From positions 404,499-436,498 of the forward strand of contig JAWAHN010000001.1 of the NCBI GenBank assembly GCA_038889235.1: 32,000 bases of DNA, written 5' to 3'. Within the stretch, counting starts at the first letter, position 1; each line of letters opens with the position of its first letter. The DNA comes from Candidatus Jordarchaeales archaeon (GTDB lineage: Archaea; Asgardarchaeota; Jordiarchaeia; Jordiarchaeales; Freyrarchaeaceae). The position numbers were made by a program, and so were the translations under genes. Below the pieces are notes generated by a model. That model saw only the letters and a list, made by a program, of their open reading frames with translations. It made no database searches and was not told the origin of the DNA. Below, in pieces: positions 15,799-20,873 of this stretch.

Positions 15799-16086
15799 CT
15801 AAATTGCTTTTTGCTTGAGTACTTCAGCCCATATCTTCTGGACCAATTTTTTCCCTTCGGGGGTTATCTCAACCCATCCTGCTTTTGTCATCGTTGCAAA
15901 CCCCTTTTCGACCAGCCATTCCACGGTCTCTTCGGGGCTCATTTCTGCTTTACCACACGTCCACGGCCTGTGGGAGCGCTCGAGCCGTTTAACTATGTTT
16001 TTCAACCGTTCTCCCCTAGGTATTTGGGAGAGCAACATGAGGGCGCTTTTGACTTCTTCGGGGAGGTCGAAAACTTGATCCGACAA
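15799..16086 (-). CDS. Small winged-helix protein
   Basis: 95 aa with a wHTH-like C-terminal pattern (EWLVEKGFA...GWVEITPEGKKLV); purine-rich SD-like sequence upstream. Confidence 0.55.
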   Translation of the reverse strand: MSDQVFDLPEEVKSALMLLSQIPRGERLKNIVKRLERSHRPWTCGKAEMSPEETVEWLVEKGFATMTKAGWVEITPEGKKLVQKIWAEVLKQKAI

Positions 16087-16339: not shown

Positions 16340-16675
16340 GTGGTTGTCTTCCGAAACAGTGGACTTAGCCGTGCTTCGGGCTCTTTTTCTAGTTTTGACC
16401 CCAGTTTTGCTGGGGGAAGCTCTAACAAGAGTGGGCACATAATCACGGAATTGGAGAAGTGTACTGGGTGCATGCTGTGCATGGTTGCGTGCGCCGTGGA
16501 GCACACGGGTTTGTTGAACCCTTCAAGGTCAAGGCTTAGAGTGGAGAACAGGCTTCCAGTGGTTGAGATCAGATTTCTCGAGGAGTGCGACTTGTGCAGG
16601 TCACTTGGAACAGACGTGCCTGTATGCGTTAGAAAGTGTCCAAGAGGAGCCTTGAAATGGGGTGGTAAGGCTTGA
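16340..16675 (+). CDS. 4Fe-4S ferredoxin-like partner of AOR
   Basis: CTGCMLCMVAC, CDLC and CVRKCPRGAL; 4-nt overlap with the AOR start; exact start uncertain. Confidence 0.85.
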   Translation: MVVFRNSGLSRASGSFSSFDPSFAGGSSNKSGHIITELEKCTGCMLCMVACAVEHTGLLNPSRSRLRVENRLPVVEIRFLEECDLCRSLGTDVPVCVRKCPRGALKWGGKA

Positions 16676-18519
16676 AAGGAGGATACATTGGACGAATGCT
16701 TGTGATCGACGTGAGCGATGGGAGCTACAAGGTTATAGACTGGACGACAGAGAAAAACGAGTGGCTAAAATTTGTAGGCGGAAGAGGGTTTGGAGCCAAA
16801 ATTGTTTGGGAGCAAACAGGTAAGCATACGAGCCCCTTGGGTCCAGAGAACGTGCTGGTGATGGCTGCCGGGCCGCTGACAGGGTTGCCCGTGCCCGGTC
16901 CTAGGATTTCGGTTTGCTCGCTCAGCCCGCTCACGGGAATATGGGGGGATAGCGCGGTAGGCGGGTTCGCCGGCCTCAAGCTTAAACAGTGCGGTTATGA
17001 TGCAGTAATCATCAAGGGAAGAAGGAAAAAATTCGCCTACCTGTACATAAGCGAGGACTGCGTAGAGCTCAGGGACGCCTCCCACCTTGTTGGTAAAGGC
17101 AGCATAGAGGCGCAAGAGGAGCTGAGGAAAGAGCACGGGAGCGGTGTTGCAACTTTAACAATAGGTCCCGCTGGGGAAAACCTTGTCCTCTTCGCCTGCA
17201 TAACCAGCGACTATGGGAGGCAGTCTGGCAGGACAGGTACTGGAGCGGTCATGGGGTCGAAGGGGCTTAAAGCCGTTGTTTTTGACGGAGACAGAGATGT
17301 CCCAGTGGCTGACGGAAGGGAGCTGCTCAGATTACTCGAGGAGGCTAAGGAGAGAATAATGACAGAAAATCATGAGCTCTACCGGCAGTTCAGCAAATAC
17401 GGGACAATGATGACTTTTGACTGGGCTCAAGATGTAGCTTGCCTGCCTACGAGGAATTTCCGCGAAAGCGTTTTTGACGGGGCTGAAGGAATAAACGCCA
17501 GTAGCGTTGAGGAAAAGGTTATGATGGGCAAGAGAGCGTGCTACGCGTGCCCGATATCCTGCAGGACCATTAGCGAAGTGAAACTCGATGGTGAGACTTT
17601 CTACCTCGACGGGCCCGAGTATGAAACCATGGCTCTCTTGGGCTCAAACCTTGGGATTAGCAACGTCTACGACCTTGTTGTGGCCCACTACCTTTGTGAC
17701 CACTACGGCATGGACGCCATATCAACCGGGGTAGTTGTGGGCTTTGCAATAGAGTGTGCACAGCGCGGGCTGCTGAAGCTTGACGGGTTGAAGCCTGATT
17801 GGGGAGACAGGGAGACTATTTTCAGCTTGCTTGAAAGCATTGCCTTCCGCAGGGGCATAGGAGGCATACTGGCCGAGGGAGTTAAGAAGGCCGCTGAGAT
17901 AATAGGGGGCGGCTGCGAGAACTACGCTATGCATGTTAAAGGACTTGAGCAGTCTGGGTATGAGACTAGGGCTGCTCCAGGAATGAGCCTTGCTTATGGG
18001 ACGTGCGATGTCGGAGCGCACCACAATAGGTCTACAATAATTGGCTGGGAGTCGAGAAACGACAGGCTCGGTACTGGAAGGGACAAGGTCGAGCTCCAAA
18101 TACTCCTCCAGCACCAGAGGAGCCTTTTCGACGCGCTTGGTGTTTGCAGGTTCCCGTGGTGCGAGACGAAGCTTCCATTCGAGTACTACGTGAAATATTA
18201 CAGAGCTGCAACAGGGATAGATGTAAGCGAAAGAGACTTGTTGAAGGCTTCGGAAAGAATATTCAATTTAACGAGGATGATAAGTGTCAGGCGGGGCATT
18301 TCGCGGAAAGACGACTACCCACCGAAGAGGGTTTTCAGTGAACCTCTCCCAAGCGGGCCATTTAAGGGAGTGAAGCTGGACTTAGAGAAGTACGAGCATA
18401 TGCTAGACATGTACTATGAGCTCAGGGGATGGAGCCGGGACGGAATCCCGACAAAAGAAAAATTGGAGGAGTTAGGTATACTAGAGCTCGTCGAGAAAGG
18501 GATGCAAAACTCATTCTAG
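16672..18519 (+). CDS. aor: Aldehyde:ferredoxin oxidoreductase family protein (tungstopterin)
   Basis: GGRGFG, SPLTG, IGPAGENLV, GRTGTGAVMGSKGLKAV, DGPEYET, CDHYGMDAIS, HVKGLE and YYELRGW. Confidence 0.93.
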   Translation: MKGGYIGRMLVIDVSDGSYKVIDWTTEKNEWLKFVGGRGFGAKIVWEQTGKHTSPLGPENVLVMAAGPLTGLPVPGPRISVCSLSPLTGIWGDSAVGGFAGLKLKQCGYDAVIIKGRRKKFAYLYISEDCVELRDASHLVGKGSIEAQEELRKEHGSGVATLTIGPAGENLVLFACITSDYGRQSGRTGTGAVMGSKGLKAVVFDGDRDVPVADGRELLRLLEEAKERIMTENHELYRQFSKYGTMMTFDWAQDVACLPTRNFRESVFDGAEGINASSVEEKVMMGKRACYACPISCRTISEVKLDGETFYLDGPEYETMALLGSNLGISNVYDLVVAHYLCDHYGMDAISTGVVVGFAIECAQRGLLKLDGLKPDWGDRETIFSLLESIAFRRGIGGILAEGVKKAAEIIGGGCENYAMHVKGLEQSGYETRAAPGMSLAYGTCDVGAHHNRSTIIGWESRNDRLGTGRDKVELQILLQHQRSLFDALGVCRFPWCETKLPFEYYVKYYRAATGIDVSERDLLKASERIFNLTRMISVRRGISRKDDYPPKRVFSEPLPSGPFKGVKLDLEKYEHMLDMYYELRGWSRDGIPTKEKLEELGILELVEKGMQNSF

Positions 18520-20133
18520 TTTTTTCGCTTTAAACCACGTCTCCTTTATGGGCCTCGAGAGTTCCTCTATGTAGCCTTCCAGCGTGCTGCATACGGCTAC
18601 CGTTTGCTCCTCTTTTTGTGGTATCCAGGCGAAAACCACTTCCTCCCTGTCCTTAACTGCCCCAATTATTTTTTCCTCGTCAGGGGTGAGAACTCTCAGA
18701 GCGGTATTTGGTCTAGAGGCGATCTTTCTCAGGAGGGATGGATCTCCCGAGGCTGCCATTTGAAGTGACACCCTAGGGCTCATCGACAATATGGCCTCCA
18801 CGTCTCCAGCCTCAACTCTCGGCATTACGAGCAGGAGCGAAGATTTGGCTGATTTAGCCACCTGCCTCACGTATTCCTTAACGTTGTTGTAGCCTGCGAC
18901 GAGGCCTACGCCTACTATTTCGGTGAAAGCTATGCTTTTCATAATACTTACTATTTCCTCTACTTTGCTTTTGACCGTTTTCAGCTCACCTGTAACCCGT
19001 TGGCTGACTGGTACTAGAGCCGAGGAAACCTTCTCTGATGTTTCAGAGCTGATCTTGGATACCGTGCTTAGTGCCTTTGACAGTTCATCTTCAACCTCTT
19101 TCAAAAGTCTAGCCGATGACAACTTGCCGGACTCTAGGGATTCTGAAAGCTTCTTGGAAACCATAATTCGTGCGTCTTCTAGAGCGCGTTTAATTTCCTC
19201 GGAAAGGGATGTCAGAGAGCGATCAACGTTGCTTTTTAAACCTCCCAAAAGCGACTCTACTTTCGACGCCAGGTTGTTAAGTTCCCCTTCCACCAGGCTC
19301 GACAGCGCTTGAGACATTCTCTCAAGACTGAATTTGACTTCCCCGTTAAAAGACGCGAAGTTTTTCTCCGCATCCAGCAGGGCAAGGTTTACTGTTTCGC
19401 CAATCTTTCTCTTAGCTTTCTCCGACTCTTGGGAAACCCTTCCCTTAACTTCTTCCAAGCTGTCCTGCAGGGAGGTGACCGTATCCTGCAACCTCTTCTG
19501 CAGCCCTTGAAGTTGTGCCACGACGTCTGAAATAGCTGACTGGATGACTCCAGACACCCTGCTTAGCGCTTCAAGTGAGAACGAGGACGACGAATCTACG
19601 AGTTCAAGCGCAAACTTCTCTATTGCCGACACGCTGCTCTTAAATGATGAGAACTGTGAAGAGACCAGCGCGGCAACCCTAGATATAGTTCCGCTTGCTT
19701 GCTCACCAACAGCCTTAGCCACGCTGCTGGCAACCTGTCTGCTGAGCGACGAAACTTCGCCTACTGTTGACGCGATAGACGACGAGGACGAATTTGACAT
19801 TTCTTTGATAGACGAGGAAGATGTCTCTAGCAGTGAAGAAGTAGCGGAAGATAGGGTGTTATAAAAGTCTTTCAATGCCGAGGATTCCTGTTCATAGAAG
19901 ACTGCAGTAAAACTTGACACTTTTTCCAAGAGAGATTTGACGGCTGTTTCGAGCTCGGCGACCTTGTCTTTCAACACTACTCCTAACTCGCCTCCCAGGG
20001 AGCTAGCCGAGGAGGAAACATATGCTTCAAGCTCGCTGACTTTCTCAAGGATTTCCTTCACTCGTTCATCTAACGCTCGCCTAGCTTCCTCCACCTTACT
20101 TTTCAACGCGTGAACCACTGACGCATCCGACAA
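18511..20133 (-). CDS. Long Ser-rich hendecad coiled-coil protein with a C-terminal TrmB/PLD-like alpha/beta domain
   Basis: ORF open from 20208; likely start is TTG 20133 after GGAGGGG; ~400 aa of 11-residue periodic helix, then a ~130-aa globular domain with no HKD motif. Confidence 0.75.
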   Translation of the reverse strand: MSDASVVHALKSKVEEARRALDERVKEILEKVSELEAYVSSSASSLGGELGVVLKDKVAELETAVKSLLEKVSSFTAVFYEQESSALKDFYNTLSSATSSLLETSSSSIKEMSNSSSSSIASTVGEVSSLSRQVASSVAKAVGEQASGTISRVAALVSSQFSSFKSSVSAIEKFALELVDSSSSFSLEALSRVSGVIQSAISDVVAQLQGLQKRLQDTVTSLQDSLEEVKGRVSQESEKAKRKIGETVNLALLDAEKNFASFNGEVKFSLERMSQALSSLVEGELNNLASKVESLLGGLKSNVDRSLTSLSEEIKRALEDARIMVSKKLSESLESGKLSSARLLKEVEDELSKALSTVSKISSETSEKVSSALVPVSQRVTGELKTVKSKVEEIVSIMKSIAFTEIVGVGLVAGYNNVKEYVRQVAKSAKSSLLLVMPRVEAGDVEAILSMSPRVSLQMAASGDPSLLRKIASRPNTALRVLTPDEEKIIGAVKDREEVVFAWIPQKEEQTVAVCSTLEGYIEELSRPIKETWFKAKKLE

Positions 20134-20357
20134 GAAATCCCCTCCTCTTCCCCCTTCTAGAAAGAGGTTAAGTTCAAGATAAGTTTTCCGTCGGCGCGGT
20201 ATAAACAATAAAAGTATATTTTTAAAAATCGCTAAAAAATATATTAACAGTAGTAACGTTTACTATGAATTTCCTCTTCGAGTGAGAAATTGTGTGACGC
20301 GATGAACGTAGCATTTCCTGGAAGGAGTGCTTTGAAAGTGGGCTTGGAGGAGTCAAG

Positions 20358-20873
20358 TTGAGCACGTATGTTTTCAAGGTGGTTATGGTTGGTGACCCAT
20401 CCGTTGGGAAGACTAGCCTTGTTATGAGGTATGTGAAGGGGTTCTTCGAATACGACTACAAGGCAACCGTCGGGACACAGATAATGAGCAAGGAGGTTCA
20501 GGTTAAAGGGTTAACGGTCAAGTTGATGATATGGGATATCGGTGGCCAGGAGAAGTTTAACACGTTAGCTCCGGCATATTATAAGGGTGCGGCTGGAGGA
20601 CTCGCAGTTTTTGACTTAACACGAAAAGAGACCTTTGAAAACCTGTCTAAATGGATTTCACGCTTAAGGACTTACGCAAACCCAAACGTGTCCATTGTCA
20701 TAGTTGGAAACAAGTCCGACTTGGTGGACGAAAGACAGGTCTCGCTCGAGGAGGCTATGGAGCTAGCAGAAAAAATCGGAGTCCCCTATATAGAGACGTC
20801 TGCCAAGAGCGGGAAAAACGTTATCAAGGTTTTCGAGATAATCGCTGAGAAAGTAGTAACTAAGAAAATTTAA
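20358..20873 (+). CDS. Rab-like small GTPase
   Basis: G1 GDPSVGKT, G2 YKATVG, G3 WDIGGQ, YYKGA, G4 NKSD, G5 ETSAK; no C-terminal Cys. Confidence 0.92.
   Translation: MSTYVFKVVMVGDPSVGKTSLVMRYVKGFFEYDYKATVGTQIMSKEVQVKGLTVKLMIWDIGGQEKFNTLAPAYYKGAAGGLAVFDLTRKETFENLSKWISRLRTYANPNVSIVIVGNKSDLVDERQVSLEEAMELAEKIGVPYIETSAKSGKNVIKVFEIIAEKVVTKKI

Follow-up and report, generated by a model that had tools for sequence, protein, structure and literature searches.

What kind of protein is encoded by the long minus-strand gene that stands head-to-head with a Rab-like GTPase gene in a Jordarchaeales genome, and does the GTPase have anything to do with it? The gene occupies positions 18511 to 20133 of a stretch of 32,000 nucleotides from Candidatus Jordarchaeales archaeon (assembly GCA_038889235.1, contig JAWAHN010000001.1, positions 404,499 to 436,498), which is called the window here. 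It is complete, with a TTG start, 540 codons and a stop, and its product is called P0002. An original prediction, made from the letters of the window alone, had proposed a filament, a membrane-shaping protein or a Rab-effector-like tether. Among the prokaryotes known, Asgard archaea are the nearest kin of eukaryotes, and little is understood of how their cells are organised inside. In our reading, to which we assign a probability of roughly one in two, P0002 is a structural rod that would act as a fixed-length strut. It would be a member without DNA-binding domain of an Asgard-specific superfamily, in which a dimerisation helix of the TrmB/TrmBL2 type was expanded to a hendecad coiled coil. 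The rod or scaffold idea of the prediction stays the best reading, and the lipid-binding and Rab-effector readings are not favoured.

The rod comprises residues 10-405 (18919..20106, minus strand), i.e., exactly 396 amino acids or 36 uninterrupted hendecads, with core positions a, d, e and h and small residues at position k. Its hydrophobicity spectrum contains one sharp Fourier peak at 3.66-3.67 residues, with a power of 53-56 on three scales. At 11/3 (3.667) residues the power is 55, against a maximum of 13.6 in the shuffle control (500 shuffles, best power 11.9-13.6), and at the heptad period of 3.5 it is only 0.6-0.9. The phase, followed in 44-residue windows, stays between -100 and -177 degrees throughout, without a stutter, and collapses only at the C-terminal domain. 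Hydrophobic residues (VLIMFWY) occupy position a in 67% of the units, d in 64%, e in 44%, h in 72% and k in 33% (58% when Ala is included), with Ala in 9 and Ser in 6 of the 36 k positions. The protein therefore has the 11/3 periodicity and the a-d-e-h core of a hendecad coiled coil and gives no heptad signal, which bears out the earlier parsing into about 36 consecutive 11-residue units with hydrophobic residues mostly at positions 1, 4/5 and 8. As Tandem Repeats Finder detected no DNA tandem repeat in the gene, the period is structural and does not stem from a recent duplication.

The composition of the rod also agrees with what had been described. Serine accounts for 83 of the 396 residues (21%), there is one proline, and aromatic residues are few (11 Phe, 3 Tyr and no Trp). 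The top 19-residue Kyte-Doolittle window (1.82) is located at residues 394-412, at the junction of rod and C-terminal domain. This stretch is not read as a transmembrane segment, because it contains Lys and Glu and its end forms the first strand of the C-terminal domain in the structural model. The proposed length of about 59 nm is arithmetically right for one continuous helix (396 × 0.15 nm).

Comparison with orthologues indicates that the rod is under constraint. Over about 400 residues, the rod alignment between P0002 and sequences that are 27% identical is free of insertions and deletions, and the same holds for P0010, at 21% identity. The rods of the most distant orthologues, P0009 and that of locus L049, carry changes of +11/-11 in the N-terminal half and a compensating pair of -4/+4 in the C-terminal half. 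The orthologues of family f4 (L047 and L048) have insertions that flank the rod centre and that, as aligned with MAFFT, do not amount to clean multiples of 11; despite these insertions, both rods are phase-coherent. In all 15 orthologues analysed, the rod power at 11/3 is 34-60, with at most 1.9 at 3.5. By alignment, rod length and phase are thus conserved down to approximately 20% identity.

Core positions additionally have their own residue preferences: a favours Leu, h favours Val/Ile and k favours Ala/Ser. The chi-square p of 2.5e-9 for seven pooled sequences is overstated, because the sequences share ancestry and include P0012, which probably is no orthologue. The flanking positions g and i are rich in Glu and Ser, not in Lys and Arg. 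Such position-specific core residues are the pattern expected of knobs-into-holes packing, and together with the constraint on the rod they would fit helix-helix packing better than a helix that lies on lipid. Serine richness itself is not conserved, amounting to 18% here and 11-13% in distant orthologues.

The C-terminal domain (residues 406-540; 18514..18918, minus strand) connects the rod to a known family. The original prediction had called it a PLD/TrmB-like head, PLD standing for phospholipase D. As a single sequence, the C-terminal 143 residues have no Pfam or NCBIfam match, NCBIfam matches elsewhere in the protein are at noise level, and P0002 itself reaches no Pfam TrmB model; the homology to TrmB consequently rests on profile and fold. 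An AlphaFold2 (AF2) model of the domain, built from a 55-row alignment of relatives, has a pLDDT of 94 and a pTM of 0.86. Foldseek searches with this model gave TrmBL2 chains as top matches (5bpi_C, E 6.5e-9, TMq 0.73), so that the nearest solved relative of the head is the TrmBL2 C-domain. Further matches were PLD, NucT, Nuc, FAM83, TrmB 2f5t (TMq 0.72), vaccinia F13, PLD3 and Zucchini. In the ESM Atlas there was no match by features, and the structural neighbours, at TM scores below 0.4, were TrmB regulators and Asgard hypothetical proteins.

At the profile level, the family C-domain matches TrmB 2f5t (E 1.8e-3) and TrmBL2 5box (E 0.013, over the whole domain, 120-262), and PF11495 is matched by 31 of 55 related C-domains at E ≤ 0.1. 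Motifs in common with TrmB and TrmBL2 are AK..(I/V)..P and D.EE; in the domain itself, the motifs AKSS..P and RDxEE are conserved. Profile and fold thus agree on a PLD-like domain that corresponds to the N-terminal half of PF11495 and to the C-domain of TrmBL2. Since residues 398-540 contain no His, there is no HKD motif (HxK(x)4D), as the prediction had stated. Only the fold is common to the PLD superfamily; the domain is no catalytic PLD/HKD nuclease.

An exhaustive HMMER search with the profile of four orthologous C-domains yielded 103 cluster representatives, and the domain is present in 203 of the 301 sampled genomes of the phylum. Many of these relatives join a winged helix-turn-helix (wHTH) domain to hundreds of residues of 11/3 helix, the wHTH of PF01978 being found at the N-terminus of 37 of the 81 long superfamily members. 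In the same scan, residues 1-130 of P0002 gave no PF01978 match. Here the rod begins at residue 10, preceded by a conserved nonapeptide without wHTH (residues 1-9; 20107..20133, minus strand), in which V6 and V7 are invariant in four orthologues. P0002 should therefore not be called a TrmB regulator, as it fails the defining wHTH test. It is a wHTH-less member of an Asgard-wide superfamily that combines a wHTH, a hendecad rod and the same C-domain.

Two of the wHTH-bearing paralogues are encoded in the same genome. P0006 (1308 aa; G000:C1:689910-693833, or L007:3911-7837, plus strand) consists of wHTH, rod and C-domain, its rod of about 1075 residues containing approximately 98 phase-coherent hendecads with a power of 126 at 11/3. 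P0007 (756 aa) has the same three parts. The orthologue C-domain profile recognizes P0006 at E 2.9e-11 and P0007 at E 4.5e-10. Orthologues of P0006 measure 1302-1308 aa and are almost free of insertions and deletions at 22-43% identity.

In a maximum-likelihood tree of the C-domain, the wHTH-less proteins of 538-543 aa (561 aa in one family) form one clade with support of 96/94. Orthologues occur in both sampled Jordarchaeales families, in nine of ten genomes besides the source, and the genome that lacks one is 73% complete. Distant orthologues are found in four other Asgard families, with frames of 547-579 aa, two of which are cut by contig ends. The other rows without wHTH adjoin long wHTH proteins in the tree and look like fragments. 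One of these, P0012 (540 aa), had been considered as an orthologue and was rejected; it groups with wHTH-type proteins of 717 and 1107 aa and is for this reason probably a fragment. To judge from these profile and fold relationships, the family is descended from TrmB/TrmBL2-type proteins. The short dimerisation helix of such an ancestor would have been expanded into a long hendecad coiled coil. No description of an Asgard hendecad-rod family was found in the searchable full-text literature. New here is the wHTH-less, fixed-length clade of these stretched, TrmBL2-like Asgard rods. Neither this membership nor the mirror relation of the two rod halves, described next, had been part of the original prediction.

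How, then, would such a rod be arranged? Its centre (residues 202-211; 19501..19530, minus strand; consensus SDxxxQLQxL) is the best conserved rod segment, L208 being nearly invariant in 16 sequences. When the conservation of residue i was correlated with that of residue 415-i, and likewise for a total of 312 candidate centres, the maximum fell exactly at 207.5, the geometric centre of 10-405 (r 0.24 unsmoothed and 0.76 with 11-residue smoothing). With hendecad means, the mirror correlation reaches r 0.78 (permutation p 0.0002). This mirror-symmetric conservation suggests that the two halves of the rod pair in an antiparallel way, and together with the position-specific core it would point to packing of two or more helices. 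The rod would then be a coiled coil or bundle, almost straight and with a slight right-handed twist, rather than an amphipathic helix bound to a membrane. Such pairing is compatible with two geometries: a single chain folded back on itself, about 29 nm long with the head at one end, or two antiparallel chains that form a dimer of about 59 nm and carry a head at either end. The latter would have a parallel in TrmB, in which the coiled-coil helices of two monomers run antiparallel (F81/I91′, F84/L88′; PMC4158304). In either form, one or more C-domains may be presented by the rod, which would serve as a strut or spacer of fixed length. The role of the C-domain itself would most likely lie in oligomerisation or in the binding of a partner, and the wHTH-bearing paralogues, in which the same domain occurs, may be involved.

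Other tests of the geometry gave less distinct results. The local phase derivative has a mirror peak at 201 (r 0.38), second to a peak at 138. The coarse local period in successive thirds of the rod is 3.658, 3.690 and 3.656. In the family of the 1308-aa paralogue, of which only four sequences were available, a weak smoothed peak lies at 602.5, against a geometric centre of about 623. The AF2 model of the full-length monomer, which is weak, breaks the helix at 205-210. A two-copy complex prediction for residues 41-540 with a 16-row alignment scored 0.02 against a mark of 0.42 and counts neither for nor against self-association.

Several observations weigh against the rod with paired halves. 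The full-length AF2 monomer, from a 4-row alignment, has a pLDDT of only 63 and a pTM of 0.44, and it consists of four helices in a generic bundle, not of a single hairpin. The orthologue alignment contains no conserved Gly or Pro at the rod centre, so that a fold-back turn is not evident from the sequence. The W-shaped conservation profile could be mirror-symmetric without any pairing, and no peak at the centre appeared when mean charge, side-chain volume and Ser/Thr density were tested for mirror symmetry. Moreover, stable coiled coils of thermophiles do not usually have a polar face with 21% Ser, and such a face would also fit a helix that folds only upon binding to a surface. Lastly, Apolipoprotein (E 6.6e-13, 49 bits) and ApoLp-III are matched in Pfam below threshold.

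The last two points belong to the reading of P0002 as a surface-active amphipathic helix, comparable to apolipoproteins, perilipins and synuclein. Such a helix would lie flat on a membrane, a lipid body or another hydrophobic interface, which it would coat or shape, and in solution it may form a closed bundle that opens into an extended belt. The unbroken 11/3 periodicity over 396 residues is compatible with this reading. Furthermore, the polar face of residues 95-200 is Ser-rich and charge-poor, and polar faces of this kind resemble those of lipid-packing sensors. The AF2 monomer bundle is also similar to apoA-IV and BAR-type bundles, among many others. When the full-length model was compared with 48,161 chains, only generic long-helix bundles were obtained with Z ≤ 16 (axonemal N-DRC proteins, TTYH, F-BAR/I-BAR, talin, apoA-IV and alpha-pore-forming toxins); these matches were not used, because such Z values are within the range common for helical models.

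However, the Apolipoprotein (PF01442) score of 49.2 bits remains below the cut-off of 90, a single Pro in the rod leaves no 22-mer punctuation, and positions g and i at the interface are not biased toward Lys and Arg. The distinct residue preferences at the core positions, the scarcity of aromatics, the poor conservation of Ser richness and the derivation of the family from the dimerisation helix of a DNA-binding protein all speak against it as well. The lipid-binding analogy is thus weakened, and we regard a surface-active helix as unlikely.

In a third reading, the rods associate laterally or end-to-end into a cytoskeleton-like filament, as do bacterial hendecad proteins of the FilP/Scy type. 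The length and regularity of the coiled coil, together with a hydrophobic seam as wide as 5 of the 11 positions, would suit a filament, the Ser-rich, low-charge surface could permit lateral packing, and there is a sub-threshold match to SF-assemblin. On the other hand, a discrete strut would account for the strictly fixed length and the globular end domain as well as a polymer does, or better, and no cytoskeletal genes are among the conserved neighbours. A filament therefore seems rather improbable.

The Rab-like neighbour gave rise to the proposal that one of the two, rod or GTPase, recruits the other, in the way that Rab/Arl proteins recruit golgins and EEA1. The GTPase gene (20358..20873, plus strand; PF00071 at 182.8 bits) indeed diverges from the rod gene across an AT-rich spacer of 224 bp (20134..20357), as had been noticed. 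This head-to-head arrangement is repeated in five further loci of family f1 (L002, L003 and L038-L040), and with only 11 Ras-family matches in the genome such an adjacency is not frequent by chance. However, in f1 the whole block of approximately 10 kb is collinear, running from BpsA, ORF95, ferredoxin and aldehyde:ferredoxin oxidoreductase (AFOR) through the rod gene and the GTPase to SSB, a second GTPase, ORF116, KaiC and Roadblock. Because all of it is syntenic, the adjacency of rod and GTPase counts for little as independent evidence. The orthologue of six f2 genomes (27% identity) is tail-to-tail with AFOR and has a 288-aa wHTH gene and polysaccharide genes upstream, and the flanks of these six loci yielded no Ras-like gene. 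The same is true for the fetched flanks of the f4, f8, f15 and f18 loci, and none of the 11 Ras-family matches of the genome is near P0006 or P0007.

The Pfam scan also revealed no named GTPase-binding domain (GRIP, GRAB or RBD) in P0002, although coiled-coil effectors often bind GTPases without such a domain. Association with a small GTPase is thus seen in f1 only and was not found in the fetched flanks of the orthologues in five other families, in contrast to what is expected of a golgin-like effector. The original prediction had named a lack of conserved linkage beforehand as a refuting outcome, and this is what the comparison across Asgard genomes gave. An effector or tether is accordingly considered very improbable. 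The attractive candidate for an "archaeal Rab effector" is removed as unsupported, and for f1 it is not disproved.

A more far-reaching version of the strut reading can be formulated, in which the wHTH-less rod does not bind DNA itself and is a partner of the giant wHTH rods. Through the C-domain that they share, the two would assemble in Asgard cells into a hetero-oligomer that acts as a scaffold with defined spacing, located within the nucleoid or connecting it to other structures, and in f1 this scaffold would also be controlled by the adjacent cluster of Rab-like GTPase, KaiC and Roadblock. The chance that all of this holds is small. If true, such a GTPase-controlled hetero-oligomeric scaffold would represent a forerunner, among prokaryotes, of coiled-coil tethers under GTPase control.

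Some further features of the compared loci deserve mention. In f2, the 288-aa protein (L046:8955-9821, minus strand) has a wHTH of the Lrp/AsnC type (HTH_24, E 7e-7), and its gene is co-directional with the rod orthologue (L046:7121-8740), 215 bp upstream of it. In locus L002 of f1, a 170-aa gene with a weak match to TRAPP (PF04051; L002:714-1226, plus strand) has the KaiC-like gene on one side and the ORF116 homologue on the other; the window contains no counterpart. One Ras-family match of the source genome (G000:C1:996173-996664, plus strand) has an in-frame TAG and could be a pseudogene or contain a small intron. Finally, in f4 a 629-aa coiled-coil protein with a weak C-terminal MarR-like helix-turn-helix (L048:557-2446, plus strand) is encoded two genes upstream of the rod orthologue, with NYN and NUDIX genes in between and reverse gyrase downstream.

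In the window itself, the minus-strand open reading frame (ORF) of the rod gene extends from 18511 to 20208. The TTG at 20133 was taken as start because it fits the extent originally proposed and because the orthologues align from there; a GGAGG motif resembling a ribosome-binding site is found 7 nt 5′ of it (20141..20145, minus strand). At the other end, the AFOR gene (16672-18519, plus strand) and the rod gene overlap by 9 bp at their 3′ ends (18511-18519). This tail-to-tail pairing is the only neighbour relation that is kept in both Jordarchaeales families. A 95-aa ORF (15799-16086, minus strand), for which searches gave no annotation, is 83-85% identical across the f1 loci and better conserved than most neighbours in that family.

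Rods that keep their length and phase to the residue at about 20% identity suggest molecular rulers or struts. The module of rod and C-domain seems functional by itself, as the clade has lost the DNA-binding head yet keeps both parts. This makes the wHTH-less clade the simplest member of the family to express and measure. For coiled-coil research, the rod of P0002 is of use as an unusually long, stutter-free natural hendecad array.

Compared with known systems, P0002 has the 11/3 amphipathic periodicity and the sub-threshold Pfam matches in common with apolipoproteins, perilipins and alpha-synuclein; it differs from them by its score below threshold, the missing Pro punctuation and class-A charge, and its position-specific core. 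The closest solved relative is TrmBL2, a chromatin protein of Thermococcales (TK0471/PF0496; PDB 5box, 5bpd, 5bpi and 5bqt), which has the same C-terminal PLD-like fold with detectable homology and, like P0002, no sugar-binding sub-domain. In TrmB (PDB 3qph and 2f5t), a helix precedes the C-domain as it does in P0002, that of TrmB being an antiparallel dimer coiled coil. Unlike both proteins, P0002 has no wHTH, and in place of their short dimerisation helix of about 30 residues it carries 396 residues of hendecads. The wHTH rods of the P0006/P0007 type share the C-domain family, the unbroken 11/3 rod and the phylum-wide distribution. In contrast to these, the P0002 clade has no wHTH, is shorter (36 hendecads) and forms a separate branch of the C-domain tree, and P0002 would be unable to bind DNA through a TrmB-type head. 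Outside this family, the stalk of tetrabrachion is a right-handed hendecad coiled coil that forms a rigid rod. Such hendecad stalks have no sequence relationship to P0002 and carry another end domain. Hendecads with an a-d-e-h core form right-handed coiled coils, for example in the peripheral stalks found in rotary ATPases (PMC6131620). The E-G stalk of A/V-ATPases and the b2 stalk of F-ATPases have the same a-d-e-h 11/3 pattern as P0002 and function as rigid rods or stators, although they measure about 14-15 nm with approximately 100 residues (PMC6131620), against 396 residues in the rod of P0002.

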